Assembly (NCBI GenBank): GCA_041563955.1
Contig: JBFGQV010000001.1
Location: forward strand, 1,508 to 65,507
DNA from: Alphaproteobacteria bacterium
GTDB taxonomy: Bacteria; Pseudomonadota; Alphaproteobacteria; UBA8366; JADFVY01
Length of the DNA stretch: 64,000 nt
Reading direction: 5' to 3'
Every line of letters starts with the position of its first letter. The stretch's first letter is position 1. The notes below the pieces were generated by a model, which was not told the origin of the DNA, did not search any database, and worked only from the letters and a program-made list of their open reading frames with translations. Both the position numbers and the translations under genes were made by a program. Below are positions 1 through 63,439 of the stretch, one piece after another.

Positions 1-1628
1 GTCTCGTTGGTCGTATCGGCCTCCGCCACGGCGTTTGCGGCGATCCTGGCCGACTGCGCTACCTGGCGGCCGATCTCTGAGATCGACGCCGACAGTTCCT
101 CCGCCGTCGTCGCCACCGTCTGCACGTTCGCCGTGGCCTCGTCGGAGGCCGATGCCACCGTCGCCGACTGACGGCTGGTCTCTTCGGCCGTCGCCGACAT
201 TTGCTGCGCCGTCGCCTGCATCTCGGTTGCCGAGGACGAGACCGCCTCCAGGGAGTCCGTGGCCGTCCTGTCGAACTGTGCACAAAGACGGATTAAGCGC
301 TCCGCCTCCGCCTCCCGGGCCGAACGGTCGGACGCCTTTTCGGCCTCGAGTCGTTTGGTATCGAGCAGCGCCTTTCGGAACCCTTCGAGGGACGATCTGA
401 TCGCTTCGAATTCGCGCAAGCGGGTCGGCGGCATGGCAGCGTCCAGACGCCCCTGCTGCATGTCGTCGAGGGCCCGGCTGGCATGGCTGACAGGTTTGAG
501 CACCTGGCTACGCAGGAACAGGGCCACGACGAGCGCGAAGCCCACGAAGCCGAGGAGCATGACGATTCCGGTGGTGCGGATGGTGCCGGCGCGGCCCGCG
601 ATTGCATGTCCACCCTCGACCGTTTCACTCATTGCACGCGCGGCATCCGCCGACAGGCGATCGGTGACGGCGGACAGGATGCGCGCCGCGTCCTCGTTCA
701 ACGCCTTGATCTGCGCCTCCAGCCCCAGCTGTTCTCGGCGCATCGAGAACGCGTCCGACAGGCCCTCGAACTCCGCCACGAGTGCGGGGAGAAATTCGTT
801 GTCGCCGCCGGTTGGAAGCCGTCCGAGCAGCGGCTTCAGACGCTTGCCGAGGCCTTTGTAGCTGCGTTCCGGACCGTCGAGTCCCTCGATATCTGTAATC
901 GTCTGGGCCTTGCCCAAGTGGGCGGTCATGTCGCGCAACGTAATGAGAAGGGTCTGGATGGCGGCGCTCCGATTCGCGAGCCGCGTTATGTCCTCCTCAA
1001 GAAAATCCAGGCTCTGGGCCGAGGCGCTACCTATATCGGCAATTCCCTCAGCCAGTTCCACGGCCGATTCCTCGCTGATCGCCACAAGCGTATCGTCGAT
1101 CTGATCGATCGCCCGGCGGGCCGTGTCGACATGTTCCTGAATCCCAATGCCCAGCCCGTCTCTCTTGTCGCCGGCCTCGGCGATCGCGCGCACGATCTCC
1201 ATGACCCGCTCGAGCTCACGATCGTCGGTCCCCGCATTGCCGCCGGACAGGCTCGCGCCGAGATGTTCCACCTGATTGAGGGCTTTTGCCCGCTGGTCGA
1301 CATTATCGGCGGTCATGACGAGGATTGCGCGGTGGGCCAGGCGCTCGACCTGGAGAGCACGATCTTGCATGACCTGCGCGCGGCTGATCGTGACGGCGTT
1401 GGTCGCATCGGCCAGCGTCGCGATCCGGCTCAGATCCAAGGCAATATTGGCGCCGACACCGACCACCGCGATCAGGACGACGATGCCCATCGCTGCCAGA
1501 ACCGCGGACAGTCCGAAGGCGGCGCCGCCCGTCGTGAACACCGGGGACGTCCCGTCCGTCCCCATATCCCCTGTCGATTTGATGCTGTCGTCCATGCCTC
1601 TTGGTTCTTCGCATTCCTCTCCGGTCAT
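1..1628 (-). CDS. Methyl-accepting chemotaxis protein, paralog A (3' end runs off the window, C-terminus missing)
   Basis: Absent from the ORF track because there is no stop in the window. My reverse-strand translation from ATG 1628 (alternative ATG 1595) gives MTGEECEEPRGMDDSIK. It continues with TM1 (FGLSAVLAAMGIVVLIAVVGV), a ~300-aa helical region, TM2 (GIVMLLGFVGFALVVALFL), and a HAMP-like LKPVSHASRALDDMQQGRLD. MCP-type signalling heptads follow (SSATEMQATAQQMSATAEETS, AEELSASISEIGRQV). The + ORF 483..1793 is its antisense shadow. Confidence 0.85.
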   Translation of the reverse strand, partial: MTGEECEEPRGMDDSIKSTGDMGTDGTSPVFTTGGAAFGLSAVLAAMGIVVLIAVVGVGANIALDLSRIATLADATNAVTISRAQVMQDRALQVERLAHRAILVMTADNVDQRAKALNQVEHLGASLSGGNAGTDDRELERVMEIVRAIAEAGDKRDGLGIGIQEHVDTARRAIDQIDDTLVAISEESAVELAEGIADIGSASAQSLDFLEEDITRLANRSAAIQTLLITLRDMTAHLGKAQTITDIEGLDGPERSYKGLGKRLKPLLGRLPTGGDNEFLPALVAEFEGLSDAFSMRREQLGLEAQIKALNEDAARILSAVTDRLSADAARAMSETVEGGHAIAGRAGTIRTTGIVMLLGFVGFALVVALFLRSQVLKPVSHASRALDDMQQGRLDAAMPPTRLREFEAIRSSLEGFRKALLDTKRLEAEKASDRSAREAEAERLIRLCAQFDRTATDSLEAVSSSATEMQATAQQMSATAEETSRQSATVASASDEATANVQTVATTAEELSASISEIGRQVAQSARIAANAVAEADTTNE

Positions 1629-1680
1629 TCGCGCGGCGCCCCGATCCGGCTGTCGGCGCGCCGCGCGATGGTCCCGGAGC

Positions 1681-2559
1681 TTACGACCCCACTCTGGTGT
1701 TCAGGACGTACTTGCCCGATACGCTGTGGTCGCCGCCGGTCGTCCCATTGGCGACGGCGAACGAGATTTCGATCGTGCCGGCGGCCGGGATGACCGCATC
1801 GTCGGCATGACCGGTGTCGAGCCGGCGCGCCAGCTCCAGATACCAGCGGCCATTGCGCCACACGCCGCGCGCCTTGACATCGGCGACGCTGCCCTGCGCC
1901 GACATGTTGACCTTGTAGCGCGGCATCATCTCGTCCTGCTTGGTGTCGTATTTCATCGAGCTGTACAGCTTGTCGCCGCCGTCGCTGGACCGCTTCAGGT
2001 AGACCGTGTTGCCGTCCGGCCCGCGGAACCTCTCGCCTCTCTCGAAGGGCTGGGGCGACACGCGCCAGTTCTTGTCATGGGCGAGCCCGGCAGTGTTCGA
2101 ACGCTGCGACTTCCAGTACCAGACATCGGCGGTGAACTCGCTGCCGTCCAGCTTGTTGGCGGTGAACGGCCCGTCCATCGAAAACGACACCATGAAGCGG
2201 TCCTCGCCGATCTTCGTCTGCTTGTAGGACTGCGACGCCTCGTCCCAGCGATAGGGCTTGTGTAGCTTGCTCTCCTCCGGATCGTCCCAGACCGCGAGCA
2301 TGTAGAACATGTCGCCATGCACGGCGGTCCTGATCTCGACCGACGCGACACCGCCGCCCCTGCGGCCGACATCGCTCAACGGCACGGTCACGGACGCAAC
2401 GCCGGCCCAGTCGTCGATCTGGCCGTCCAGCGTGATCGGCGCCTTGAGCGCGGCCGCGCCGATCGTCGTCTCGGCCTGCGCCGGCAGCGACGCTGTGAAC
2501 GTCAAACCAAACGCACAGGCCAGTGCCATCGGTTTGGCAGTATTCTTTAACCGAATCAT
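1681..2559 (-). CDS. Secreted EB_dh/DOMON-like (ethylbenzene dehydrogenase gamma-type, putative haem-b-binding) protein, paralog A
   Basis: Part of ORF 1681..2574. ATG 2559 has GGAG 10 nt upstream; ATG 2574 has no SD. Signal peptide MIRLKNTAKPMALACAFGLTFTASLPAQA. Motifs: LDGQIDDW, VWDDPEESKLHKPYRW, ADVWYWKSQRS, GVWRNGRWYLELARRLDTGHADD, FAVANGTTGGDHSVS. Collinear with the paralogs at 54593 and 58003. Confidence 0.85.
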   Translation of the reverse strand: MIRLKNTAKPMALACAFGLTFTASLPAQAETTIGAAALKAPITLDGQIDDWAGVASVTVPLSDVGRRGGGVASVEIRTAVHGDMFYMLAVWDDPEESKLHKPYRWDEASQSYKQTKIGEDRFMVSFSMDGPFTANKLDGSEFTADVWYWKSQRSNTAGLAHDKNWRVSPQPFERGERFRGPDGNTVYLKRSSDGGDKLYSSMKYDTKQDEMMPRYKVNMSAQGSVADVKARGVWRNGRWYLELARRLDTGHADDAVIPAAGTIEISFAVANGTTGGDHSVSGKYVLNTRVGS

Positions 2560-2759
2560 TCGCTCATTCTCCATTGAAGGTTAAAACAAACATCACGCCC
2601 TTGCGGACACGACCGTCAGCCGTCGCGTCTATGGCTGTGATCCGAGCTGCTGGCGCGCGCCCCACGGCGAAACCGTCCGCGCAAATTTCGTGCCGAACGT
2701 CGTACGGCCGAGATGCTTTGCTCGATTTCTGCAATCTGCATGGCTGAAGATACCGTGGA

Positions 2760-2960
2760 GGTGACAAGATGCGCCCGTTTTGCCCAAAGTATTATGCAAA
2801 GATTAAGAAAGTATGAATTGAGAAGTAGACATGAGGTACTAGTTTCAATTGCATCAATATGCGGGTAATAATAGTCAGGGGTGCCAGATTTATTATTGTT
2901 AACGAGATGGTTTTTTCGTACTTTCGGGTTAATTATTTCCGTCTATTGTGCCGGTTGTAT
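2760..2960. promoter_or_regulatory. AT-rich island upstream of the minus-strand EB_dh-MCP cassette A; likely promoter/regulatory region
   Basis: Hand count of 2781-2960 gives ~36% G+C against a ~68% background. Contains TTAA-gaaagta-TGAA at 2803..2817 and a GTTAAC palindrome at 2898..2903. No credible ORF. Confidence 0.4.
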
Positions 2961-3300
2961 ATGACACAGGCCGCGCACAGACTGCCCGAATCTGCTATGC
3001 AAAGAGACAGGTCGTCCCGATCGGGGTGGCCCTTGCGTTTCACCGACATTGACCGGTGGTCGCCCGGCCCTCTGCGCGCGATCCAGCGCCGCCTTGACAT
3101 GGATCACGGCCTGCCGGCGGCAAGCTCGTTGCGTCGAGGAAATTCCCGTTGCCCTGAGCGGCCCGGCAGGGCCCGCCGGCGCCGACATCGCGCGGGGTCG
3201 CCCGCGGCGCGCCGGGCATTGCCGTGCCTTGAGGCCCGGACCTCGACGCCTGCCGGCGCTTTCGCCCAGCTTCACGCTGCTGCCCGGGAAGGCACTGCCC

Positions 3301-3768
3301 CTATTTTAGGTAGCCGTAGACGATCGCCTTGCAGGCCTTGGCGAAGGTGCGCTTCGACATGGCGCCGGCAAAGCCGCCGCCGGAAACGCGTTCCATCACA
3401 TTGGCGTGGAGGTCGGGGGCCTGTTCGACGAGGTCCGGCAGGTGCCAGGGGAACCGTGCGAACGCGCCCCTGGCGGTCGACAGCGTGTCCTCGATCACCG
3501 CCGGCCAGTCGCCGCCCTCGGTCGCATCGCGTCCCTGGCGCACCAGGATTTCAGCGATCGCGCTCAGCCCCGCCTTGGTCCAGCAGGCGCGCTGCACGTT
3601 GGCGGTATAGGTCTCGAGGAGCGCCTCGTCGTCCTCGTCCAGGGCGAAGAGAATCTCGAACTTGTCGGTCGTGCCGCCGGCATAGAGATCGAACACCCGC
3701 ACGAGAATCGGCGTGAGGCAATTGCCGGCACAGGCATCGCCGCCGGGGCAATTGTCGCAGGAACGCAT
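3301..3768 (-). CDS. Hypothetical protein with N-terminal Cys cluster (C-x2-C-x5-C-x3-C)
   Basis: Only the last 155 codons of the 726-aa track ORF 3301..5481 look coding. ATG at 3768 is preceded by GGAAGGAGG. Sequence MRSCDNCPGGDACAGNCLTPILVRVFDLY... ends YGYLK. Family not recognised. Confidence 0.65.
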   Translation of the reverse strand: MRSCDNCPGGDACAGNCLTPILVRVFDLYAGGTTDKFEILFALDEDDEALLETYTANVQRACWTKAGLSAIAEILVRQGRDATEGGDWPAVIEDTLSTARGAFARFPWHLPDLVEQAPDLHANVMERVSGGGFAGAMSKRTFAKACKAIVYGYLK

Positions 3769-4032
3769 GGGCCTCCTTCCGCCGGCGACCGTGCCGCCAT
3801 TACCAATTCGTGTCAACGACCTACCATAAAGGAGGAGGTTCTGGCCATCCCCGGGTAGAGTCCGCGGGTGCCGCCCGAAACCCGCGGAAAACCCTAACGC
3901 ATGGGGTCGTTCCGCCGGTTCGCGCCGGAGCCGAGGCGGACCACGCATCGGGGCTTCAAGGCAGGCCCCGCAGTCCGTATCATGAGCGGCGCGCGCCGGC
4001 GGTTCCACATTCGCCGCCGCCAGCCGGGGGAC

Positions 4033-5070
4033 ATGCCGATGCTCACGATCTACAGCGAGGACCACAAGCTCCAGGACGGCAAGTTCGAGCTTATCGACGG
4101 CCAGCTCCTGCCGCCCTTCGAGCGGCCGCAGCGGGCAGAGAACGTGCTCGCAAGGGTGCGCGAGGTCGGGCTCGGCGAGGTGCGCGGCCCGGACGACTTC
4201 GGTCTCGATCCCGTGCGCCGGGTGCACGACCCCGATTTCGTTGAGTTCCTGCGCACCGCGCATGACGAATGGCGCGCGGCCCACGGTGACAGCGACGCGC
4301 TGCCGCTCAACTGGCCGTGCCGCGGGTTTCGCCAGAAGATCCCGGAATCGATCGACGGCCGGCTCAGCTACTACTCGTTCGACGCCGGCACGCCGATTAC
4401 CGCCGGCACCTGGCGGGCCATCACGGCGTCGGCCAACGTCGCCCTGAGCGGCGCGAAGCAGCTCAAGGACAGCGGCGACCGCGCGGTGTTCGCGCTGTGC
4501 CGTCCACCGGGGCACCATGCGGCGCGCGACCTCTATGCCGGCTACTGCTTCTTCAACAACGTCGCGGTGGCGGCGCAGTGGTTCCGCGACCAGGGCGCCA
4601 CGCGGGTCGCCATCCTCGACGTCGACTACCATCACGGCAACGGCACGCAGATGATCTTCTACGACCGCGCCGACGTGCTGTTCGTCTCGCTGCATGGCCA
4701 TCCGGCCCAGGAATACCCGTTCTTCCTCGGCTACGAGGACGAGCGCGGCGAGGGGGCCGGGGAGGGCTTCAACGTCAACCACCCGATGCGCTGGGGCACC
4801 GGCTGGGACGCGTACGGCCGCGCGCTCGACAGCGGCATCGCCCGCATCGCCGACTACCGGCCGGACTTGCTGCTGGTCTCGCTCGGCGTCGATACCTTCA
4901 AAGACGATCCGATCTCGCAGTTCCGGCTGGACAGCGACGACTACACCGAGATCGGCCGGCGCATCGCGCATCTCGGCCTGCCGACGCTGTTCGTCATGGA
5001 GGGCGGCTACGCCATCGACGAGATCGGCGTCAACACGGTCAACCTGTTGAGCGGGTTCGAGGCGGCCTGA
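4033..5070 (+). CDS. Histone deacetylase-family amidohydrolase (acetylpolyamine amidohydrolase-like)
   Basis: Internal ATG 4033 (MPMLTIYSEDH) of ORF 3901..5070. HDAC-family motifs: RPPGHHA, DVDYHHGNGTQ, and the C-terminal EGGY. Confidence 0.85.
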   Translation: MPMLTIYSEDHKLQDGKFELIDGQLLPPFERPQRAENVLARVREVGLGEVRGPDDFGLDPVRRVHDPDFVEFLRTAHDEWRAAHGDSDALPLNWPCRGFRQKIPESIDGRLSYYSFDAGTPITAGTWRAITASANVALSGAKQLKDSGDRAVFALCRPPGHHAARDLYAGYCFFNNVAVAAQWFRDQGATRVAILDVDYHHGNGTQMIFYDRADVLFVSLHGHPAQEYPFFLGYEDERGEGAGEGFNVNHPMRWGTGWDAYGRALDSGIARIADYRPDLLLVSLGVDTFKDDPISQFRLDSDDYTEIGRRIAHLGLPTLFVMEGGYAIDEIGVNTVNLLSGFEAA

Positions 5071-5165
5071 GGCGTCTGGGACCTTGACCTTCCACCGCAA
5101 GGAAGGTTTATCCAGCGCCGCACGAAGGCTTTTGCGGAAGGGTGAGAGATGACCGGACGGGCGCC

Positions 5166-5561
5166 ATGAAATACGTCGTCGTGACCGTGCTGGCGCTCGG
5201 CATCGGCGTCGTCGCGTGGCGGCTGCTGACGCCGGGCGGGACCGGCGGCGCGCCGCGCGAAATCGCGGTGCCGCAGCTGTCGGCGGCGGCGGAGATCGGC
5301 AAGAAATCCTATGACGGCAACTGCGCCAGGTGCCACGGCGCGAACGCCGCCGGGACGGGCAGCGGCCCGCCGCTGGTGCACGATTACTACAAGCCGGATC
5401 ACCACGCCGACGGGGCGTTCCATGTCGCGGTCGTCCGGGGCGTGCGCCAGCATCACTGGAGGTTCGGCAACATGCCGGCACAGCCGCACGTCACCGAGCA
5501 GCAGACGCGCATGATCATCCGCTACGTCCGGGAACTGCAGGAGGCCAACGGCATCCGCTGA
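5166..5561 (+). CDS. Membrane-anchored monohaem c-type cytochrome
   Basis: ATG 5166 (MKYVVVTVLALGIGVVAW) supplies an N-terminal anchor. One CxxCH motif (CARCH). Distal Met candidate in FGNMPAQ. Confidence 0.8.
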   Translation: MKYVVVTVLALGIGVVAWRLLTPGGTGGAPREIAVPQLSAAAEIGKKSYDGNCARCHGANAAGTGSGPPLVHDYYKPDHHADGAFHVAVVRGVRQHHWRFGNMPAQPHVTEQQTRMIIRYVRELQEANGIR

Positions 5562-5586
5562 GCGCTCGGCGGGGACGGCGCCGCCC

Positions 5587-6714
5587 ATGGACCATTTCGA
5601 TGTCATGATCGTCGGCGCCGGGATCGCCGGCGCCTCGGCCGGGTTCTTCCTCGCCGCCACGCACCGGGTGGTTTTGCTCGAGCGCGAGGACCAGCCGGGC
5701 TACCACGCGACCGGACGCTCCGCGGCGCTGTTCACCGAGACCTACGGAAACGCCTCCATCCGGGCGCTGACGCGCGGTGCCCGCCGGTTCTTCGAGGCGC
5801 CGCCCGACGACTTCGCGGCAACGCCGCTGCTGGCGCCGCGCGGCCTGCTCTATATCGGCCGCGCCGACCAGCGCGACCCGCTCGAGCGGCGGTATCACGA
5901 GTTGTCCGACCGCGGCGCCGACATCCGCCGCATCGCGGCCGACGAGGCCCGCGATCTGTGCCCGATCCTGCGTCGCGAGCCGCTGGCCGCCGCGTTGCTG
6001 GAGCCCGACTGCATGGACATCGACGTCGCGGCGCTGCATCAGGGCTATCTGAAGGGCCTGCGGGCCCGCGGCGGGCGCGTTCTGACCGACGCTGCGGTCC
6101 GCTCGCTTCGGTTCGATGCCGGGCGGGGCTGGATCGCGGAGACGCCGCAGGGTGCCATCGCGGCACCCGTCGTGGTCAACGCGGCCGGCGCCTGGGCCGA
6201 CGAGATCGCAACGCTCGCCGGGGTGCCGCCGGTCGGGCTGACGCCGCTGCGCCGCACCGCCCTGCTGCTCGACCTGCCGGACGGCATGGACGCCGGCGGA
6301 TGGCCGATGATCGTCGACGCCGACGAGGCGTTCTACTTCAAGCCCGATGCCGGACGCCTGCTGCTGTCGCCAGCCGACGAGACGCCAAGCCCGCCCTGCG
6401 ATGCGCGGCCCGACGACATCGACGTCGCCACCGCCGTCGACCGGCTGGAGCGGGCGACGACGCTGCAGGTCCGCCGCGTCGGCCACAAATGGGCCGGCCT
6501 GCGCACCTTCGCGCCCGACCGTTCGCTGATCGCGGGGTTCGATCCGGCCGCCGCCGGCTTCTTCTGGCTCGCCGGGCAGGGCGGATACGGCATCCAGACG
6601 TCGCCCGCCATGGGGCGAATCGCTGCGGCGACGATCGCCGGCGCCGGGATGCCGGCGGACCTTGCGGAGCTTGGCGTGACGATGGCGATGCTGGACGTGC
6701 GTCGTTTGCGTTGA
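5587..6714 (+). CDS. FAD-dependent oxidoreductase (DAO / glycine-D-amino-acid oxidase family)
   Basis: N-terminal dinucleotide fold DVMIVGAGIAGASAGFFLA...LLERE. 375 aa, with the overall DAO-family layout. Confidence 0.85.
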   Translation: MDHFDVMIVGAGIAGASAGFFLAATHRVVLLEREDQPGYHATGRSAALFTETYGNASIRALTRGARRFFEAPPDDFAATPLLAPRGLLYIGRADQRDPLERRYHELSDRGADIRRIAADEARDLCPILRREPLAAALLEPDCMDIDVAALHQGYLKGLRARGGRVLTDAAVRSLRFDAGRGWIAETPQGAIAAPVVVNAAGAWADEIATLAGVPPVGLTPLRRTALLLDLPDGMDAGGWPMIVDADEAFYFKPDAGRLLLSPADETPSPPCDARPDDIDVATAVDRLERATTLQVRRVGHKWAGLRTFAPDRSLIAGFDPAAAGFFWLAGQGGYGIQTSPAMGRIAAATIAGAGMPADLAELGVTMAMLDVRRLR

Positions 6715-6925
6715 CCCGGCGGCGCGCCACGGATCCGCTCGCACCCTTGCGGGCCTCCGGCAAGGCGCGGCCAAATGCTTTGGCCGGCAACCGGATGTGG
6801 TGTAGCCTTTGCCACCCGGTCGGCGAAAGGGGGCGCCGTGCATACGTCTGCCGGTTCCCGATCGGCGACCGGTTGCCGGGCCATGGATAGGGCGTGGCGT
6901 TTGTTGGCAAAGAGGGAAGAAAAGG

Positions 6926-7135
6926 ATGCCCACAGGGACGGTCAAGTGGTTCAATACAAGGAAGGGCTATGGCTTCATCGCCCCCGACGAGGGAGACCGG
7001 GACGTGTTCGTCCACATCACGGAGGTGCAGAACTCCGGATTGCCCGGGCTGGCTGAAGGGCAGAGAATCTCGTTCGAGGTCAAGGACGAGCCGAAGGGGC
7101 TGAAGGCCGTCGGGTTGACCGCAATCGAAACTTGA
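6926..7135 (+). CDS. Cold-shock protein (CspA family)
   Basis: MPTGTVKWFNTRKGYGFIAPDEGDRDVFVHITEV carries the RNP1/RNP2 motifs. ATG 6926 sits after AGAGGGAAGAAAAGG. About 210 nt of untranslated leader lies upstream. Confidence 0.95.
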   Translation: MPTGTVKWFNTRKGYGFIAPDEGDRDVFVHITEVQNSGLPGLAEGQRISFEVKDEPKGLKAVGLTAIET

Positions 7136-7168
7136 GCCGGGCTCCTCCCGCGAGGGCCGAAGGACTCA

Positions 7169-7187
7169 CCCGCCCGCGCCGGGCGGG
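7169..7187. terminator. GC hairpin between convergent csp and kinase genes
   Basis: CCCGCCCG-cgc-CGGGCGGG is a perfect 8-bp inverted repeat. No U-tract on either strand, so terminator function is uncertain. Confidence 0.3.
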
Positions 7188-7195
7188 ATGGCGCT

Positions 7196-8968
7196 CTAGG
7201 CAGTCGTCGATTCCGGCTGGATCACGCGGGTCTTCGGGAACACCGCGGTGCCCGTGGTGCCCTTGCCGATATCACTGCTGAGGCTGAACCGGCCGCCGTG
7301 CAACTCGACCAGGGCCTTGACCAGCGGCAGGCCCAGCCCGGTGCCGTCGTGCTGGCGCACCATCGGGTTGCTGAGCCGGACGAACGGCGAGATGACGCGC
7401 TCCACGTCTTCCGGCGTCATGCCCCGCCCGTCGTCGGCCACGGTCAGCACGATGCCGCCTTCGGCATTGCGTCGTGCGCTCACCGTGACCTGGCCGCTGT
7501 CCTGCATGTAGCGGACCGCGTTGCCGGCAAGGTTGATCACGATCTGCTGGATCTTGTGCGGGTCGCCGAGTAGCAGCGGCAAACCCGCCTCGATGTCGCG
7601 AACCAGTCTGATCTTGGCGGCCTTTGCGTCGTCCTCCACGAATCGCAACGCCTTTTCGATCTCGTCGCCGATCACGACGGCCTGCTCGTCCAGTTCGAGC
7701 CGTCCGGCCTCGATCCGCGAAATGTCCAGGATATTGTTGATGACGGCAAGCAGGTGCCGGGCACTGTCGTAGATGTCGCTGGCGTAGTCGACATAGCGCT
7801 CGTCGCCGAGCGGTCCGCGGAGCTGCTGCTTCATGACCTCGGAGAAGCCGATGATCGCGTTGAGCGGCGTCCGCAGCTCATGACTCATGGTCAGCAGGAA
7901 GTCGGTCTTGGCCCGATTCGCCGAATCGGCGCGGCGCTGTTGCGTTGCCAGGTCTTCCTGGCGTTCCTTCAGCGCGGTGATATCGGTGCGGATGCTCACG
8001 CAGCCGCCGTCCGTGGTGCGGCGCTCGCTGACCCGCAGCCAACGGCCGTCCAGGTGCTTGACCTCGAAATCCTCGGTGGGGTGGCGATGCATGCGCATGC
8101 GACGCCGGATCCACTCCTCTTCGTTGCCGACCGCATCGGCGACAAGGCCTTTCGATACGTACGCCCGGACGATCTCCTCGAACGGCACGCCCGGTACCAA
8201 CAGGTCGGCGACCTGCGCATGGATCTCGCGGAACCGCTGGTTGCACTTGACCAGCCGATCGTTGCTGTCGAACAGGCTGAAGCCGTCCGAGAAACTCTCG
8301 ACCGCTTCCGACAGGCGCGACAGGGCGCTTTCTTCCGCCGCCTGCGCGCGCCGGGCTTCGCGGATTTCATGGAGCAGCAGAAGCATCAGGCAGCCGCCGC
8401 TCAGCAGGATACCCAGGGATGCCAGCAAGAGCTCCACGTAGCCGCGGTCGAGGCGCGCGCTGCGGATGGTGGCCGCACCCTCCTGCCATTGCCTGGTGTC
8501 CATCAGCGTCCGGTGCAGGGGGCCGAGAAGGCCATGCAGTTCCTCCCGGATCCTCAGGTACCGCTCGCGGTCCCCGCGCTCCAGCGCCTGGACCTCCGGC
8601 TCCATGCGTTCGAGCACGTCGATGGCGGCCCGGGCCGCCTCCTGCGTGTCGCCGATGTTGGCCAGTCTGCGGCCCTCCCGGCCCTCGAGGAACAGCGGGA
8701 GTCGGCTCCAGAAGACCTCCATGCGCTCGATGACGTCCTCGCGGCTTATCAGGTCGTCGTCGCCGTACATATAGATGTCCAGCGAATAGAGAAAGCGGGT
8801 CAGCTCGATCTCGGCCTGGTAGATGACCCAGGTGGCGTCCGAGATTTCCGCCTGCGCCAGCCTTTCGTATTTGCGCAGATTGTCGAAGCTGATGATCATG
8901 CTGACCGAGAAGGCCAGCATGGTCAGCCCCAGCAGAGTGTATACGCTGAAGATCTTCCGCAGCTTCAT
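7196..8968 (-). CDS. Sensor histidine kinase (2 TM + PAS + HisKA + HATPase_c)
   Basis: H-box SHELRTPLNAIIGFSE, N-box NLAGNAVRY, G1 DDGRGM, G2 GTGLGLPL. N-terminal TM helix and a second TM (LLLASLGILLSGGCLMLLLL). PAS-like segment before the H-box. Confidence 0.9.
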   Translation of the reverse strand: MKLRKIFSVYTLLGLTMLAFSVSMIISFDNLRKYERLAQAEISDATWVIYQAEIELTRFLYSLDIYMYGDDDLISREDVIERMEVFWSRLPLFLEGREGRRLANIGDTQEAARAAIDVLERMEPEVQALERGDRERYLRIREELHGLLGPLHRTLMDTRQWQEGAATIRSARLDRGYVELLLASLGILLSGGCLMLLLLHEIREARRAQAAEESALSRLSEAVESFSDGFSLFDSNDRLVKCNQRFREIHAQVADLLVPGVPFEEIVRAYVSKGLVADAVGNEEEWIRRRMRMHRHPTEDFEVKHLDGRWLRVSERRTTDGGCVSIRTDITALKERQEDLATQQRRADSANRAKTDFLLTMSHELRTPLNAIIGFSEVMKQQLRGPLGDERYVDYASDIYDSARHLLAVINNILDISRIEAGRLELDEQAVVIGDEIEKALRFVEDDAKAAKIRLVRDIEAGLPLLLGDPHKIQQIVINLAGNAVRYMQDSGQVTVSARRNAEGGIVLTVADDGRGMTPEDVERVISPFVRLSNPMVRQHDGTGLGLPLVKALVELHGGRFSLSSDIGKGTTGTAVFPKTRVIQPESTTA

Positions 8969-8973
8969 GTGCG

Positions 8974-9234
8974 TTACGTCGGGTCGACGAGCCGGCGTTC
9001 GGCCGGTGCCTGCCCTTGTCTGAAAACCTCCATCGAGGACACCTGGGTATCCTCCCTCAGTGGCCGTTCATGCGGGTTGCCCGGTCCCGCTCGATTCAGC
9101 ATGACCATCACCGCGGTGCGTGGAACCGCGCCCGTCCAGTACGCGTCATAACTGTAGTCCGGCGCGGCGGTCGCATCCAGCCAATTGCGCAGCCGCCGGC
9201 GGCGGCCCGGGATCCGGTCGCTGTCGCACAGCAC
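8974..9234 (-). CDS. Hypothetical ORF tightly coupled to the kinase; possibly the 3' part of a frameshifted gene
   Basis: GTG-initiated 86-codon ORF with high third-position G/C (by hand). Its TAA (8976..8974) lies 5 nt before the kinase ATG. An adjacent-frame ORF (9460..9146) overlaps its 5' end. Confidence 0.3.
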   Translation of the reverse strand: MLCDSDRIPGRRRRLRNWLDATAAPDYSYDAYWTGAVPRTAVMVMLNRAGPGNPHERPLREDTQVSSMEVFRQGQAPAERRLVDPT

Positions 9235-9580
9235 GGCCGCTGACCGGGCTGCACGTGATGATTTCCTTTTGCTTCAACAGAGTAGCTCCGAGTTGTGGTC
9301 GGACGATCGACCGGCAATTCGCGGGCTCCAGTGCGTGTCCTGCGGTCTCCGTCCGCGGCGATCGGGTGCTGATAAAGTCCTCGATCGGCATGAACGAACG
9401 ATTAACCGCGCCGCCATCGGGCAGCCGGGCGATCGCTGCGCCGCCGGCGCGGGCATGCACGGCTTTGCCGGGCCGGCTGGGAGACGGCGACGCCTGCGCA
9501 CTTGACGGGCCGGGTCGACGACCTTATGTTCCGCGCCGAACCTAGCAGGGGTTGCCCCGGGGACGGGGCGGCGGAAAGTC

Positions 9581-9706
9581 ATGAAAGTCGTTAATTCTCT
9601 GAAGTCGATGAAGCGGCGGCACAAGGAGTGCCGCATCGTGCGCCGCAAGGGGCGGCTCTACGTCATCAACAAGCGCAATCCGAGGTTCAAGGCCCGCCAG
9701 GGCTGA
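9581..9706 (+). CDS. rpmJ: 50S ribosomal protein L36, Cys-less YkgO type
   Basis: Too short for the ORF track. My translation is [41 protein letters not shown] (41 aa). This closely resembles YkgO-type L36. Confidence 0.9.
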
Positions 9707-9748
9707 AGCGCGTCGGAGCCGAGCCCGCGGCTCCGAAAGTCTGCAATG

Positions 9749-9780
9749 AACCGCGCCGGAGGGCGCGGTTTTCTAGTTTG
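9749..9780 (+). terminator. Rho-independent terminator after rpmJ
   Basis: AACCGCGCC-ggag-GGCGCGGTT is a perfect 9-bp stem followed by TTCTAGTTTG. A second hairpin (GGAGCCG...CGGCTCC) lies at ~9712-9735. Confidence 0.65.
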
Positions 9781-9854
9781 TTGCGACAGACGGTTTTCGT
9801 TTTGTCCGTTTGCTGCTATCACCGGTCCTCGGAACAGCGGGCGGATACTGACCG

Positions 9855-11345
9855 ATGAAGATGCCGGAGCCCGACGCGGCCGTCCTTGCGCGCCGTGAGG
9901 AAATTGCCGAAGCGCTGGCGGCGATGGTCCCTGGCGACGGGGGCGTCATCGTCGACCCGGATGAATTGCTTCCATACGAATCGGATGGCCTGACCGCTTA
10001 TCGGCAGCCCCCCATGCTGGCGGTGCTGCCGGAGACCACGGACCAGGTTCGCGATGTGCTGCGGTACTGCCACGAACACGGAATCAAGGTTGTTCCGCGC
10101 GGCGCCGGCACGTCGCTGTCCGGCGGGGCGCTGCCGCTGGCCGACGGCGTCCTGCTGGGAATGAGCCGATTCAACCGCATCCTCGAAATCGACTACGACA
10201 ACCGCTGCGTGGTCGCCCAGCCGGGCGTCACCAATCTCGGCATCACCAAGGCCGTCGAGCATGAGGGCTTCTACTACGCTCCCGATCCGTCGAGCCAGAT
10301 CGCCTGCTCCATCGGCGGCAACATCGCCGAGAACTCCGGCGGTGTGCACTGCCTGAAATACGGCCTGACGACGAACAACGTCCTCGGCTTGGAGCTGGTG
10401 CTGATCGACGGTGAGGTCATCCGTATCGGCGGCCGGCACCTCGATGCCGAGGGCTACGATCTGCTCGGCGTCCTGACCGGCTCGGAAGGGCTGCTCGGCG
10501 TGGTCACCGAGGTCACCGTGCGCATCCTGCGCAGCCCGGAGACAGCCCGGGCGATGCTTGCGGGGTTCCCGACGAGCGAACAGGCCGGCGATTGCGTCGG
10601 CAGGATCATCGGCGCCGGGATCATTCCGGGCGGCATGGAGATGATGGACGGGCTCGCGATCCGGGCGGCCGAGGAGTTCGCCCATGCCGGCTACCCGCTG
10701 GACGTCGAGGCGCTGCTCATCATCGAGCTCGACGGCCCGGAGCGGGAAGTGGCCGATCTGATCGGCCGGGTCACGAAGATCGCCACCGACACCGGCGCCT
10801 CGACGATCCGGATCTCCGAGAGCGATGCCGAACGCGAGGCGTTCTGGGCCGGGCGCAAGGCGGCGTTCCCGGCGGTCGGCCGCATCTCGCCGGACTATTA
10901 CTGCATGGACGGCACGATCCCGCGGCACCGCCTGCCGGAGGTGCTGCGGCGCATCACCGAGCTCTCGCGGCACTACGAGCTGCGGGTGGCCAACGTCTTC
11001 CATGCCGGCGACGGGAACCTGCATCCGTTGATCCTCTATGACGCCAACGTGCCCGGCGAGCTCGAGAGGGCCGAAGCGTTTGGCGCCGACATCCTGAAGC
11101 TGTGCGTCGAGGTCGGCGGCGTGTTGACCGGCGAGCATGGTGTCGGCGTCGAGAAGCGCGACCTGATGACGACGATGTTCTCGGAGGAGGACCTCAACCA
11201 GCAGCAGCGCTTGAAATGCGCGTTCGATCCGGCATCTCTGCTCAATCCCGGCAAGATGTTCCCGGAACTGCATCGCTGCGCCGAACTCGGCCGCATGCAT
11301 GTCCACCGCGGCAAACTGCCGTTCCCTGACATTCCGCGCTTCTGA
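9855..11345 (+). CDS. glcD: Glycolate oxidase subunit GlcD (FAD-linked oxidase)
   Basis: 496 aa. FAD-binding PCMH-type N-terminus (VVPRGAGTSLSGGALP). First gene of a D-E-F order. Confidence 0.9.
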   Translation: MKMPEPDAAVLARREEIAEALAAMVPGDGGVIVDPDELLPYESDGLTAYRQPPMLAVLPETTDQVRDVLRYCHEHGIKVVPRGAGTSLSGGALPLADGVLLGMSRFNRILEIDYDNRCVVAQPGVTNLGITKAVEHEGFYYAPDPSSQIACSIGGNIAENSGGVHCLKYGLTTNNVLGLELVLIDGEVIRIGGRHLDAEGYDLLGVLTGSEGLLGVVTEVTVRILRSPETARAMLAGFPTSEQAGDCVGRIIGAGIIPGGMEMMDGLAIRAAEEFAHAGYPLDVEALLIIELDGPEREVADLIGRVTKIATDTGASTIRISESDAEREAFWAGRKAAFPAVGRISPDYYCMDGTIPRHRLPEVLRRITELSRHYELRVANVFHAGDGNLHPLILYDANVPGELERAEAFGADILKLCVEVGGVLTGEHGVGVEKRDLMTTMFSEEDLNQQQRLKCAFDPASLLNPGKMFPELHRCAELGRMHVHRGKLPFPDIPRF

Positions 11346-54592: not shown

Positions 54593-55462
54593 ATGCATAC
54601 GCTTTTTGGACAAAAACACTTGGTTTCAGCTGCCGTAATCCTCGGCTTCACGACCTTTACGGCAATTCCGGCCGCAGCGCAGACGAGCGTCCGGGCCACC
54701 AGCCTCGGCGCTGCGGTGCAGGTTGATGGCGATCCGTCCGACTGGGATGGCGTTCCTTCCTACAACATCGGTCTGACCGGGCGCGGTGGCGTCGATTCGG
54801 TCGAGATGCGTTTCGGCATCCGTGGCGATACCGTCTACGTGCTCGCAATTTGGGACGACCCCACCGAAAGCCGGTTGCACAAGCCGTATGAGTGGCGCGA
54901 GGAGTCGCAATCATACCGGCGCACCAATCGGCTCGAGGATCGTTTTGCAATGAATTTCCTGATGTCCGGCGAGTTCTCCAACAGCAAGCTGTCCGGCAAT
55001 GAATTCACCGCCGACGTCTGGCACTGGAAGGCCTCGCGTTCGGATCCGGCGGGTATTGCCCACGACAAGAGCTGGCGCGTCTCGCGCAGTGAGTTCCCGG
55101 GCGCCAAACCGTTCCAGACGGCAGACGGACAGACCGTCTATCTCGCCCGGCCCAGCGACGCCGGCGACCGCCTGTACCGGCCGATCAAGCATACCGAAAA
55201 GCAGGACGACGTGATGCCGCGCTACGAGGTCAACCTGTCGCCATCCGGCAGCGTCGCCGACATCCGCGCGAAGGGCGTCTGGCGCGACGGGCGCTGGTAT
55301 CTGGAGATGGCGCGCCGTCTCGACACCGGCCATGCGGACGACGTGGTGATCCCCGCCTCCGGCCGGATCCCGTTCGCGGTGGCCGCGTTCAACGACGTCG
55401 ACAGCGGGGACCACAGCGTCTCCGAGGTCCTTTACCTGCAGACCGGAAACTACGCCAATTGA
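54593..55462 (+). CDS. Secreted EB_dh/DOMON-like putative haem-b-binding protein, paralog B
   Basis: GAGGGA 8 nt upstream. Signal peptide ...FTAIPAAAQ. VDGDPSDW, IWDDPTESRLHKPYEW, ADVWHWKASRSDPAGIAHDKSWRVS, GVWRDGRWYLEMARRLDTGHADD, FAVAAFNDVDSGDHSVS. 289 aa, collinear with paralog C. Confidence 0.85.
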   Translation: MHTLFGQKHLVSAAVILGFTTFTAIPAAAQTSVRATSLGAAVQVDGDPSDWDGVPSYNIGLTGRGGVDSVEMRFGIRGDTVYVLAIWDDPTESRLHKPYEWREESQSYRRTNRLEDRFAMNFLMSGEFSNSKLSGNEFTADVWHWKASRSDPAGIAHDKSWRVSRSEFPGAKPFQTADGQTVYLARPSDAGDRLYRPIKHTEKQDDVMPRYEVNLSPSGSVADIRAKGVWRDGRWYLEMARRLDTGHADDVVIPASGRIPFAVAAFNDVDSGDHSVSEVLYLQTGNYAN

Positions 55463-58002: not shown

Positions 58003-58872
58003 ATGTTCGATCATACCCTTTGCAGGCACGTTCTCACGACATCCGTCACCCTGGCGTTGTCCGCCGGGTCGGTGTTTCCTGCCGCGGCGCAGTCCGTGGT
58101 CGAGGCAGTCATGCTTCCGGCGCCGATCCAGGTGGACGGCGACCTCGGCGACTGGGCCGGGACCCCGTCACAGCGCATTGCGCTCACCGGCCGCGGCGGG
58201 GTCGATTTCGTGGAGGTGACGTTCGGAATCCACGACGATACGATCTACCTGCGGGCGGTCTGGGACGACGCGACCGAAAGCCGCTTGCACAAGCCGTATC
58301 GATGGGACGAGCAGACCCTGTCCTATCGCCGCACCCGCCAGCTGGAAGACCGTTTTGCGATTTCATTCGCAATGTCCGGCGAGTTCTCCAACAGCAAGCT
58401 GTCCGGCAATGAATTCACCGCCGACGTCTGGCATTGGAAGGCCTCGCGTTCGGACCCGGCGGGCATCGCTCACGACAAAAGCTGGCGCGTCTCGCGTAGC
58501 GAATTCCCGGGGGCGAAGAAGTTCACCAACCCCGAAGGTCAGGTCATCTACCTGGCCCGGCCGAGCGATGCCGGCGACCGCCTGTACCGGGCGGTCAAGC
58601 ACGAAACCCGGCACGAGGACCTGATGCCGCGCTACGAGGTCAACCTGTCGCCGAAAGGCAGCGTTGCAGACGTCCGCGCGAAGGGGGTCTGGCGCGACGG
58701 GCGCTGGTACCTCGAGATGGCGCGCAAGCTGGATACCGGCCACGAGGATGACGCCGTGATTCCCGCCGTCGGACGAATTCTCTTCGCGATTGCCGGCCAT
58801 AACGACGTCGACAACGAACGACACAGCGTGTCGGAAACGTTCGTCCTGCAGACCGGCGGGTACGGGAACTGA
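58003..58872 (+). CDS. Secreted EB_dh/DOMON-like putative haem-b-binding protein, paralog C
   Basis: AAGGGGA upstream. Signal peptide ...SAGSVFPAAAQ. 289 aa with no indels relative to paralog B (constant offset 3410 nt). A 49-aa block is identical (MSGEFSNSKLSGNEFTADVWHWKASRSDPAGIAHDKSWRVSRSEFPGAK). Confidence 0.85.
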   Translation: MFDHTLCRHVLTTSVTLALSAGSVFPAAAQSVVEAVMLPAPIQVDGDLGDWAGTPSQRIALTGRGGVDFVEVTFGIHDDTIYLRAVWDDATESRLHKPYRWDEQTLSYRRTRQLEDRFAISFAMSGEFSNSKLSGNEFTADVWHWKASRSDPAGIAHDKSWRVSRSEFPGAKKFTNPEGQVIYLARPSDAGDRLYRAVKHETRHEDLMPRYEVNLSPKGSVADVRAKGVWRDGRWYLEMARKLDTGHEDDAVIPAVGRILFAIAGHNDVDNERHSVSETFVLQTGGYGN

Positions 58873-61031: not shown

Positions 61032-61114
61032 TTACCCGCGATTCTGCAAGTCCGTGACCGACCGGGCCGGGCTGTGATATGACCGGCATCGGCTCGGATG
61101 CGGGAGGCGGGCGC

Positions 61115-63439
61115 ATGGCGACGGAATCACGGACACCGTTCAGGGGATCGGCGACCCATTGGGGCGCCTTCTCGCCTGAGGTGCGGGACAACCGGGTGGT
61201 CGGCGTGCGGCCGTTCGCCGGCGATGCCGACCCGTCGCCCATCCTGCGCTCGATACCGGACGCCCTGTACGATGCGAGCCGCATCGACCGGCCCTATGTG
61301 CGTGCGGGGTATCTCAAGAACGGCCCCGCCGGCGATCGGGACGGGCGTGGCGCGGAGCCATTCGTGCCGGTCGACTGGGAGGCCGCCCTCGATCTCGTGG
61401 CGGCGGAGGTGGCGCGGGTCCGCGACAGCCATGGCAACGCGGCCATCTTCGGCGGCTCCTATGGCTGGGCCAGTGCCGGCCGGCTGCATCACGCGCGCAC
61501 CCTGCTGCACCGCTTCCTCAACTGCGCCGGCGGCTTCACCGGGCAGGTGACGAATTATTCTTACGCCGCGGGCATGATCGTGATGCCGCACGTGGTCGGC
61601 ACGGTGCAGCCGGTCAGCGGGCCGGGCACCAGCTGGCCGAGCATCGTAGAGGCGACGCGCCTGATGGTCATGTTCGGCGGCGTGCCGCTGAAGAATACCC
61701 AGGTCGAATCCGGCGGCACGGGCGAACACACGGCGGCGGGCTGGCTGCGGCGCGCCCGCGAGGCCGGGGTCCGGTTCGTCTCGATCAGCCCGCTGCGCAG
61801 CGATGCGGCGGCGTTCCTGGACGCCGAATGGCTGGCGCCGCGGCCGGGGAGCGATACTGCAATCATGCTGGGCCTTGCCCATACGCTGGTCGCCGAGGGG
61901 CTGCCCGACGCGGCGTTCCTTAAGGGGTACACAACCGGATTCGACAGGTTCCGGGCGTATCTTCTGGGCGAAGCCGACGGCCAGCCCAAGGATGCGGAGT
62001 GGGGCGCCCGGCTGTCCGGCCTGGCGGCCGATGCGATCCGCGACCTTGCCCGGCGTATGGCCGCGACCCGCACCTTCATCACCTCGAGCTGGTCGTTGCA
62101 GCGCGCCGATCACGGCGAGCAGTCGTACTGGATGACCGTGGTGCTGGGCGCGCTGCTCGGCCAGATCGGCTTGCCGGGCGGCGGCTTCGGCTTCGGCTAC
62201 GGCGCGGTCAACGGCATGGGCAACCCGCGCCGCAACGCGCCGGTGCCCCGCATGCCGGCGGGGCCCAAGCCGGCCGGCATCGACATTCCGGTGGCGCGCA
62301 TCGCCGACATGCTGCTGCAGCCGGGCGCGACCATCGACTTCAACGGGCGGCGGGTCACCTATCCCGACATCCGGCTGGTCTACTGGGCCGGCGGCAATCC
62401 GTTCCACCACCACCAGGACCTCAACCGCCTGGTCGCGGCCTGGCGGCGGCCGGAGACGATCGTCGTGCACGAACCCTGGTGGACGGCGACGGCGCGCCAC
62501 GCCGATATCGTGCTGCCGGCGACCACGCCGCTGGAGCGCAACGACATCGCCGCCTCCTCGCTCGACCGCTTCGTGATCGCCATGCGTCGCGCCATCGACC
62601 CGGTCGCGGGGGCGCGCGACGATTTCCGCATCTTCGCAGATCTCGCGCAGCGCCTCGGGTTCGGCGCCGCATTCACCGAGGGGCGCGACGAAATGGGCTG
62701 GCTGCGGCACATCTACGACGTGGCGCGGCAACAGGCGGCCCATTTCGAACTCGACATGCCCGACTTCGACGCGTTCTGGGAGATCGGGTGGCATGAGTTC
62801 CCCGCCCCGGACCGTCCCTACGTGCTATTCGAGAAGTTCCGCCACGACCCGGCCGAGTCGCCGCTGCGGACGCCGTCCGGGCGCATCGAAATCTTCTCCC
62901 GGGCGATCGACTCGTTCGGCTACGACGACTGCCCGGGCCACCCGGTATGGCGCGCACCGGCGGAGTGGCTGGGCGCCGTCACGGCGCGGGACTATCCGCT
63001 GCACCTGATCTCCAACCAGCCAACAACGCGGCTGCACGGGCAGATGGACAACGGCCGCGTCAGCAGGGAGCAGAAGGTCTGCGGCCGCGAGCCGGTGTGG
63101 ATTCATCCCGACGACGCCGCCGCGCGGGGCATCGCGAACGGCGACGTCGTTCGCCTGTTCAATGAGCGGGGCGCTTGTCTCGCCGGCGCGAAAATCAGCG
63201 ATTCGGTCCGCCCGCGAGTCGTCGCCATTGCGACGGGCGCCTGGTACGACCCCGTCGAGCCCGGCCGCATCGGCACGCTCGACCGGCACGGCAATCCCAA
63301 CGTCCTGACGCGGGACGCCGGCACGTCGCGCCTGGCCCAGGGTCCGGTGGCCGGCAGCGCGCTCGTCGAGATCGAGCGCTGGGACGGCGCGGTGCCGGAC
63401 ATCACCGTCGGCGATGCGCCTGCGATAACGGATGCGTGA
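61115..63439 (+). CDS. bisC: Molybdopterin oxidoreductase, BisC/TorZ-type (biotin / methionine-S-sulfoxide reductase family), cytoplasmic
   Basis: ATG 61115 after GGGAGG. HWGAF, IFGGSYGWASAGRLHHARTLLHRF, VYWAGGNPFHHHQDLNRL, ADIVLPATTPLERNDI and SGRIEIFS parallel E. coli BisC along the whole length as I recall it. No twin-arginine signal. Confidence 0.9.
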   Translation: MATESRTPFRGSATHWGAFSPEVRDNRVVGVRPFAGDADPSPILRSIPDALYDASRIDRPYVRAGYLKNGPAGDRDGRGAEPFVPVDWEAALDLVAAEVARVRDSHGNAAIFGGSYGWASAGRLHHARTLLHRFLNCAGGFTGQVTNYSYAAGMIVMPHVVGTVQPVSGPGTSWPSIVEATRLMVMFGGVPLKNTQVESGGTGEHTAAGWLRRAREAGVRFVSISPLRSDAAAFLDAEWLAPRPGSDTAIMLGLAHTLVAEGLPDAAFLKGYTTGFDRFRAYLLGEADGQPKDAEWGARLSGLAADAIRDLARRMAATRTFITSSWSLQRADHGEQSYWMTVVLGALLGQIGLPGGGFGFGYGAVNGMGNPRRNAPVPRMPAGPKPAGIDIPVARIADMLLQPGATIDFNGRRVTYPDIRLVYWAGGNPFHHHQDLNRLVAAWRRPETIVVHEPWWTATARHADIVLPATTPLERNDIAASSLDRFVIAMRRAIDPVAGARDDFRIFADLAQRLGFGAAFTEGRDEMGWLRHIYDVARQQAAHFELDMPDFDAFWEIGWHEFPAPDRPYVLFEKFRHDPAESPLRTPSGRIEIFSRAIDSFGYDDCPGHPVWRAPAEWLGAVTARDYPLHLISNQPTTRLHGQMDNGRVSREQKVCGREPVWIHPDDAAARGIANGDVVRLFNERGACLAGAKISDSVRPRVVAIATGAWYDPVEPGRIGTLDRHGNPNVLTRDAGTSRLAQGPVAGSALVEIERWDGAVPDITVGDAPAITDA

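Follow-up and report, generated by a model that had tools for sequence, protein, structure and literature searches.

A third EB_dh-family protein and chemoreceptor gene pair in an alphaproteobacterial contig as a candidate two-protein periplasmic sensing module

The sensor TorS does not bind trimethylamine N-oxide (TMAO) on its own but reads the periplasmic protein TorT, and H-NOX and NosP are stand-alone haem sensors which are encoded beside methyl-accepting chemotaxis proteins (MCPs), histidine kinases and c-di-GMP enzymes across phyla. Here, 64,000 nucleotides of contig JBFGQV010000001.1 (assembly GCA_041563955.1, an Alphaproteobacteria bacterium; positions 1,508 to 65,507, referred to as the window) were analysed, in which a small secreted protein of the EB_dh/DOMON fold and an MCP are encoded one behind the other on the minus strand at the left edge (cassette A, with small protein A and MCP-A), with two further pairs of this kind (cassettes B and C) standing in tandem on the plus strand near the other end. 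Cassette A is rather probably the third paralog, and a functional one, of a periplasmic sensing module built from two proteins, in which the small protein acts as a co-sensor docking on its cognate MCP. Together, small protein and receptor point to an undescribed two-protein periplasmic sensing module across many phyla; in the full-text literature, no paper was found that links EB_dh/DOMON proteins to chemoreceptors, kinases or diguanylate cyclases.

The spread of the pair was determined by scanning one genome per species, which yielded at least 445 confirmed relatives of the small protein; 80 related loci among these were fetched (Alpha- and Gammaproteobacteria, Desulfobacterota, Magnetococcales, SAR324, Nitrospirota, Planctomycetota and others), and the genes directly downstream on the same strand, 79 in number, were extracted and classified. 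Of these 79 genes, 66 encode a signal transducer with two transmembrane (TM) helices, at gaps of mostly -59 to +90 nt, and the layout TM1, periplasmic domain, TM2 is common to every transducer found in this position. Their outputs differ: 40 are MCPs (37 with the MCPsignal domain and three cut by the contig end but possessing a homologous sensor), 11 belong to the GGDEF(-EAL) proteins and another 11 to the histidine kinases (eight of them hybrids with a receiver domain), one is a HAMP-GAF protein, two combine an MCP-A-like sensor with no recognisable output and one (L040) is truncated and carries a short-class sensor. Cultured carriers of the histidine kinase or GGDEF-EAL versions include Thiothrix fructosivorans ATCC 49748 (L041), Thiothrix caldifontis DSM 21228 (L043) and Motiliproteus sediminis HS6 (L055). 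Two main classes of periplasmic domain were identified, a long one of ~280-300 aa, which is found mainly in alphaproteobacterial MCPs including those of cassettes A, B and C, and a short one of ~180 aa, of which 32 members form one phmmer cluster spanning MCP, histidine kinase, GGDEF-EAL and GAF outputs, with six other short sensors falling into two small separate clusters; a Pfam search at E <= 1 returned no family for either class. The small protein travels with the periplasmic sensor domain, irrespective of the output, as is characteristic of a partner dedicated to the sensing end of the receptor. Within the window, MCP-A, MCP-B and MCP-C are the only ones among the open reading frames (ORFs) to possess the long-class sensor, and each is preceded by a small-protein gene. 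Among 1.84 billion cluster representatives, a search with the small protein matched 247 clusters (50 % identity) at E <= 1e-30 and 1118 at E <= 1e-10; the public names of its relatives are 'hypothetical' or 'ethylbenzene dehydrogenase-related'.

The features of the three cassettes are as follows.

1681..2559, minus strand: gene of small protein A (ATG at 2559, TAA at 1683-1681), 292 aa, secreted, EB_dh/DOMON fold
2473..2559, minus strand: predicted Sec signal peptide of small protein A, MIRLKNTAKPMALACAFGLTFTASLPAQA, with cleavage before ETTIG, as read from the sequence
1596..1680, minus strand: spacer of 85 nt between small gene A and MCP-A, with AAGAGG 5 nt before the ATG at 1595
1..1595, minus strand: MCP-A, ATG at 1595, first 531 of 711 codons, open to the window edge
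1455..1511, minus strand: transmembrane helix 1 of MCP-A, residues 29-47, from a hydropathy scan
570..1454, minus strand: periplasmic sensor domain of MCP-A, residues 48-342 (~295 aa), all-helical with stacked bundles in the AlphaFold2 (AF2) model
513..569, minus strand: transmembrane helix 2 of MCP-A, residues 343-361, from a hydropathy scan
3..512, minus strand: HAMP-like segment and N-terminal signalling part of MCP-A, residues 362-531, from the alignment to MCP-B and MCP-C
54593..55462, plus strand: small protein B, 289 aa
55479..57677, plus strand: MCP-B, 732 aa, PF00015 at 98 bits, long-class sensor
58003..58872, plus strand: small protein C, 289 aa
58920..61031, plus strand: MCP-C, 703 aa, PF00015 at 96 bits, long-class sensor

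An earlier note on this DNA, made from the sequence alone, had described a secreted paralog at 1681..2559 on the minus strand, followed after ~50-85 nt by an MCP that leaves the window. Both statements were borne out, as the 292-aa ORF possesses a Sec signal peptide and matches PF09459 with 73.3 bits, and as MCP-A starts at the ATG at 1595 (an alternative ATG at 1628 would leave a gap of 52 nt behind small gene A) and runs open through 531 codons. For the leftward extension which the note had proposed, contig JBFGKG010000016.1 (L082) was used, which is 99.94 % identical to window positions 1..6910 and reaches 586 nt beyond the window. Its copy of MCP-A is complete, comprising 711 aa with PF00015, and the pseudogene considered in the note was not found; the MCP-A portion inside the window is without Pfam match. 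A search for a terminator-like site in the 85-nt spacer was negative, and small gene A and MCP-A almost certainly form one operon. That the adjacency of the two genes is fortuitous, or that copy A is a decaying remnant, would be suggested solely by the fact that MCP-A is cut by the window edge, and this explanation is scarcely credible, given that both genes are intact and that their arrangement is kept in two other metagenome-assembled genomes (MAGs; L001 and L002, 92-94 % protein identity) and across phyla. The complete MCP-A of L082 and the transducers encoded by 66 of the 79 downstream genes refute it.

Three sequences possess a single unrooted topology, for which reason a three-taxon test for congruence is uninformative and orthologs were added: neighbour-joining trees with 200 bootstraps were calculated for 26 pairs, namely cassettes A, B and C of the window together with orthologs from 23 other loci. 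Clade A (the window copy, L001 and L002) was obtained with a bootstrap of 100 in both the small-protein and the sensor tree, clade B (the window copy, L004 and L005_1) with 99 and 100, clade C (the window copy and L005_0) with 100 and 73 and the union of B and C with 100 and 54, respectively. As both trees recover clades A, B and C, the pair was duplicated as a unit. Ten of the 21 splits are common to both trees (label permutation: mean 0.27, maximum 3) and the distance matrices of small protein and sensor correlate with a Mantel r = 0.74, which becomes a partial r = 0.66 when the cytoplasmic domain is controlled for. The congruent topologies for which the earlier note had proposed a test were thereby obtained at the supported nodes, and its view of the pair as one evolutionary and functional unit agrees with the common splits, the matrix correlation and the conserved adjacency. 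The trees do not resolve the deep nodes, such as the one joining clade A to its closest relative. Single copies from other lineages (L014, L022) are closer to B and C than A is, which places the split between A and B/C far back in time, with both genes agreeing; this ancient split reflects either an old paralogy or an acquisition.

The note had further assumed that the pair was maintained through an older as well as through a recent tandem duplication. An old split is supported by the congruent clades, but the recent duplication did not stand up, since the identity between the sensors of MCP-B and MCP-C is a mere 39-40 % and since both cassettes have orthologs of their own in other MAGs (L004, L005, L013, L018), L005 displaying the same tandem order. 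The duplication leading to B and C is consequently older than those lineages. The periplasmic sensor of MCP-A is 28-29 % identical to those of B and C, the HAMP-like segment 44-53 % (B versus C 88 %), the following helix 41 % and the signalling core 68-72 % (B versus C 96 %), whereas MCP-B and MCP-C share 80-96 % across these three cytoplasmic parts, in keeping with the statement of the note that HAMP and signalling sequence of MCP-A are different. Apart from a single one-residue indel, the cytoplasmic part of MCP-A is collinear with those of B and C; TM1 and TM2 of the latter were found by hydropathy at positions equivalent to those of MCP-A. The Pfam HAMP model (PF00672) gave zero matches in MCP-A, MCP-B and MCP-C, which carry a segment of ~55 residues at the HAMP position, and was detected in the transducers of 23 relatives. 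At the DNA level, the identity of MCP-B and MCP-C rises from 37-65 % in the sensor halves to 79-96 % from 56682/60036 onwards (to 57677/61031), and the cytoplasmic halves group by genome (L005_0 with L005_1, bootstrap 100 %). Judged from these sequences, concerted evolution by gene conversion has homogenised the output modules of MCP-B and MCP-C only, and it is this homogenisation of the cytoplasmic halves which makes B and C appear recent. Between MCP-A and MCP-B/C, the DNA identity of 70-73 % and a longest exact match of 54 nt gave no sign of recent exchange. In the small genes B and C, a block of 100 nt (54982-55081 versus 58392-58491) is 94 % identical, compared with 50-79 % in its surroundings. 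The invariant NSKLSGNEFTADVWHWKASRSDPAGIAHDKSWRVS segment is encoded by this block, which could reflect either strong constraint or a micro-conversion tract.

For small protein A, an alternative in-frame ATG at 2574 would yield a form of 297 aa (five additional residues), but the start at 2559 is favoured by a GGAG 9-14 nt upstream and is also used by the gene calls on two public contigs. These two NCBI MAG contigs, one of which is L082, encode the exact 292-aa protein. Inspection of the signal peptide identified a basic n-region, a hydrophobic core and an AQA motif, and neither a twin-arginine motif nor a lipobox; in the AF2 model, residues 8-31 of the 297-aa form, covering the signal-peptide region, have a pLDDT < 50. 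The Pfam cut-off for PF09459 (EB_dh, 33.3 bits) is passed by small proteins A, B and C with 73.3, 75.3 and 75.4 bits. The conserved blocks that had been named earlier, HKPYRW, ADVWYWK, GVWRNGRWYLELARRLDTGHADD and GDHSVS, were all located in the alignment of small protein A, with near-identical forms in B and C. The greater distance of small protein A was likewise documented: its identity amounts to 53 % (B) and 51 % (C) in a three-way alignment and to 52.6 % and 49.5 % over trimmed columns, over which B and C are 69 % identical to each other. Among 76 members of the small-protein family, 49 columns are conserved to at least 85 %, including H105, K106, W152, W154, K155, R158, K168 and H283.

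Structure prediction placed both partners. The AF2 model of small protein A is a beta-sandwich (pLDDT 89.3, pTM 0.83) whose best match in the PDB, as identified by Foldseek, is EbdC (2ivf_C, E 6.9e-10, TMt 0.77), followed by NxrC (7b04, E ~7e-9) and, farther away, by CBM9 modules (7nwo and 1i82, E ~4e-4); a profile-to-PDB sequence search resulted in the same ranking. The sensor domain of MCP-A, modelled from an input of just five sequences with pLDDT 82.9 and pTM 0.71, consists of three long and four short helices. Its best Foldseek match is the TorS sensor in the TorS-TorT complexes 3o1i, 3o1j and 3o1h (E 2e-6, TM 0.65-0.71; for 3o1i_A, E 2.4e-6, TMq 0.65, TMt 0.71 and an rmsd of 4.1 Å over 273 columns), much weaker matches being PilJ and the helical bimodular (HBM) domain of McpS (TM 0.33-0.43; McpS HBM 0.33-0.40). 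The sequence identity to TorS amounts to 12-14 %, and the domain is without Pfam family. With TorS as its nearest match, the closest structural analogue of the MCP-A sensor is a partner-dependent one.

At this point a second interpretation has to be weighed, according to which the small protein works together with the MCP without binding the signal. It would set receptor activity as a periplasmic inhibitor, stabiliser or assembly factor, with the helical domain of the MCP doing the sensing itself. Regulators of the partner type are represented by CpxP for CpxA, YfiR for YfiN and ExoR for ExoS. Synteny and co-evolution data would fit this interpretation equally well, and helical bimodular domains such as those of McpS and PilJ, to which the weaker fold matches were obtained, can bind ligands directly; it was nevertheless regarded as unlikely, as the near-invariant polar and aromatic residues of the small protein are typical of a cofactor or ligand pocket and as the sensor fold is much nearer to the partner-dependent TorS than to the directly binding McpS.

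The similarity to EbdC raises the question of haem. EbdC ligates haem b through a Met and a Lys residue (PMC8840923). The Met ligand precedes the motif V-N-x-W-x-W-K by seven residues in both EbdC and NxrC. Its column is equivalent to position 141 of small protein A, and that of the Lys ligand, according to the end-points of the EbdC profile alignment, to H283. In EbdC these ligands are presumably residues 108 (Met) and 201 (Lys). Both columns speak against a canonical haem site in the co-sensor: position 141 is Lys in small proteins A, B and C, and among the 76 members it is Trp in 34, Lys in 28 and Met in 10, with Trp prevailing in most gammaproteobacterial members and Met confined to the ~10 distant ones, and position 283 is occupied by His in 66 of the 76 and by Lys in four. 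Within the family, H283 is conserved to 87 %, M133 to 79 % and H105 to 95 %. H133, M141 and K283 occur together in the distant members, and M133, Lys or Trp at 141 and H283 in the main family; this linked switch suggests that the three positions share one pocket. The cut-offs of the models for type-II gamma subunits were not reached (TIGR03477 with 27.5 bits versus 169.85; the EbdC equivalog NF042980 with 19.2 versus 400), and the family is not a canonical type-II gamma subunit. Haem binding by the small protein appears plausible from its relationships, the canonical Met/Lys ligands being replaced. Haem b may be held by His283 as proximal ligand, perhaps together with an exchangeable distal ligand, which may make the protein a periplasmic redox or gas sensor. 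A broader proposal, which we regard as tentative and on balance doubtful, is that the family, with its at least 445 loci, comprises widespread dedicated periplasmic haem redox or gas sensors, comparable to H-NOX and NosP in the cytoplasm. They would derive from the electron-transfer subunit EbdC/NxrC by exchange of the six-coordinate Met/Lys ligation for a haem ligated by His283 with an open or weakly held distal site, and would feed chemotaxis, two-component and c-di-GMP outputs via the two uncatalogued families of helical sensor domains.

A haem-free co-sensor for a carbohydrate or another small organic ligand, in the manner of the CBM9 branch, was also considered. In its favour, CBM9 modules (7nwo, 1i82) rank next among the fold matches after the haem subunits, fusions to lectin-like PF06439 or PKD domains occur in part of the family and the canonical haem ligands are missing; on the other side, the haem subunits are clearly more similar (TMq 0.52-0.56 versus 0.38, E 1e-9 versus 0.3), and the Lys-ligand column is occupied by H283, with Lys instead in four members. 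A haem-free co-sensor is unlikely. The fusions themselves were observed in several proteins (P0101, P0103, P0096, P0134, P0150 and others), in which an EB_dh-like domain is combined with PF06439 or with family-less N-terminal regions of 200-700 aa; in P0096, several EB_dh repeats stand in tandem ahead of PKD domains. These fusions in distant members (PF06439, PKD, long N-terminal regions) gave no functional clue.

Directly behind MCP-C, after 47 nt, the gene 61079-63439 (plus strand) encodes a molybdopterin S/N-oxide reductase of the bisC family. It scored 1035 bits with TIGR00509 (cut-off 1017.55), lacks the Tat-leader part of the TorA profile and is a single-subunit enzyme. In three other lineages of the B/C clade (L013:9183-11507, L014:5439-7757 and L018:9123-11462), the reductase gene is again located behind the MCP, at a distance of +71 to +117 nt; it is not found at cassette A. 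Together with the TorS-like sensor fold, this neighbour hints at S-/N-oxide taxis for B and C. The reductase also bears on the idea that the small protein is an EbdC/NxrC-like periplasmic haem-b electron carrier of a respiratory enzyme which is merely co-transcribed with the MCP, the latter reading the proton-motive force or another ligand. Membership in Pfam EB_dh, the best fold matches EbdC and NxrC and the position of the reductase behind cassette C and behind the MCP in L013, L014 and L018 can be cited for it. The neighbouring enzyme is of the cytoplasmic BisC type, though, which uses no gamma subunit and here lacks the Tat-leader part; genes for molybdoenzyme alpha or beta subunits do not adjoin cassette A, TIGR03477 remains far under its cut-off, the canonical Met/Lys ligands are not conserved, and a tight link to three kinds of transducer across phyla is unexpected for a respiratory subunit. 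An electron carrier of this kind is therefore very unlikely. The role of a respiratory gamma subunit was rejected on the missing alpha/beta genes, the sub-cut-off TIGR03477 score, the replaced ligands and the coupling to transducers.

Returning to the co-sensor, the following course of events is suggested. The small protein would be the actual signal-binding component and would attach to the TorS-like sensor domain of the MCP encoded beside it, in the way in which TorT docks on TorS, LuxP on LuxQ and maltose-binding protein on Tar. Depending on its ligand or redox state, it would then alter the conformation of the receptor, and the signal would pass via TM2 and the HAMP-like segment to CheA, the activity of which would set the swimming direction. 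Co-diverged interfaces probably keep the three cassettes apart, so that they would represent three input channels, those of B and C sharing one homogenised output module. Several points weigh against this proposal. We infer the physical interaction of small protein and MCP from their synteny and co-divergence, and the reciprocal check, starting from the sensor and asking for the partner, covered the window and the fetched loci. Among the 79 downstream genes 13 are non-transducers, mostly from the most distant relatives. Homology between the long and the short sensor class was undetected by hmmsearch in both directions and by hhalign (probability 4 %), and as a consequence a docking mode common to both classes is not established.

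Some loci deviate from the simple pair. In L020 (Geminicoccaceae bacterium) and L021, the small protein is followed by a protein of ~570 aa with an MCP-A-like sensor and without recognisable output, behind which a HAMP-PAS-GGDEF-EAL gene follows at +18 nt or +54 nt; the two genes may represent a split receptor.

L020:3428-5134 and 5152-7710: ~570-aa sensor gene, then HAMP-PAS-GGDEF-EAL gene
L021:6849-8567 and 8621-10807: ~570-aa sensor gene, then HAMP-PAS-GGDEF-EAL gene

In L008, two tandem EB_dh-family genes (4892-5602 and 5896-6795) precede a single MCP, the upstream copy encoding 236 aa without the C-terminal HSVS/His283 region, and in L047 a single small-protein gene precedes two hybrid histidine kinase genes in tandem (1004-3232 and 3275-5614), both matching the short-sensor profile.

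Upstream of small gene A lies a gene-free stretch of 726 nt (2575-3300), partly AT-rich. One sigma-70-like promoter match was found in it (2961-2932, minus strand), as was a terminator-like hairpin (2592-2613, minus strand) whose end is 33 nt before the ATG at 2559; these matches may constitute a leader or regulatory element or may have arisen by chance, their counts lying within shuffled expectation. An Rfam search of the whole 64-kb window gave zero matches. Further upstream, on the same strand, an ORF of 155 aa (3301-3768, minus strand) is predicted as a gene on both L081 and L082 and is without Pfam or NCBIfam match. The further neighbours of cassette A, located on the other strand, encode an HDAC-like protein, a cytochrome c and a DAO family protein; molybdopterin alpha or Fe-S beta subunit genes adjoining cassette A were not found. 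Contig CAYFYY010000023.1 (57,116 nt) spans the region from a cut MCP-A' to a cut MCP-C', which documents that the inverted layout of A relative to B/C (~50 kb) is conserved. The contigs of related MAGs (L001, L002, L004, L005, L081) end within MCP genes, probably because the similar signalling-domain DNA breaks assemblies there.

The significance of the pair lies less in the third copy itself than in a conserved module whose outputs are interchangeable and whose receptor domain resembles that of TorS. An EB_dh-related family, rare but phylogenetically broad, becomes linked to three classes of signal transducers. For most chemoreceptors and sensor kinases no signal is known and the periplasmic domain often belongs to no family; here, a testable model with the partner as sensor is available, two uncatalogued periplasmic sensor domains were defined, and the three co-resident, diverged pairs provide a natural system for studying partner specificity after duplication. 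If haem were bound, this would add a new route for periplasmic redox or gas sensing in gradient-dwelling marine and sediment bacteria.

Among the described systems, TorT-TorS of E. coli and Vibrio, which senses TMAO, is likewise composed of a stand-alone periplasmic protein encoded beside a two-TM receptor with a stack of helical bundles, and the proposed logic is the same in that the partner would bind the signal and the receptor would read the partner. The partner described here, however, is an EB_dh/DOMON beta-sandwich, whereas TorT possesses the fold of a periplasmic binding protein; the output is an MCP (a histidine kinase or GGDEF-EAL protein in relatives) and not only a hybrid kinase, and at the level of sequence no relation of the MCP-A sensor to TorS is seen. 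With EbdC, NxrC, DdhC and SerC, the haem-b gamma subunits of the type-II DMSO-reductase family, the small protein has PF09459, Sec-type export, the W-x-W-K block and the C-terminal R-x-L-x-T-G-D block in common, but it is ~40-80 residues longer, is coupled to signalling proteins and has Lys or Trp in the Met ligand column and His in the Lys column. H-NOX and NosP display the genomic signature seen here, a small stand-alone gene beside transducers; they are cytoplasmic and of unrelated folds, and a haem in the present family is conjectural. Finally, Tar with maltose-binding protein, Tsr with LsrB and Trg with the ribose- and galactose-binding proteins also receive chemoreceptor input via a separate periplasmic protein. 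Their partner is a periplasmic binding protein of an ABC transporter which is encoded elsewhere and shared with transport, whereas the partner described here is dedicated, co-transcribed and co-duplicated with its receptor, and of a different fold.

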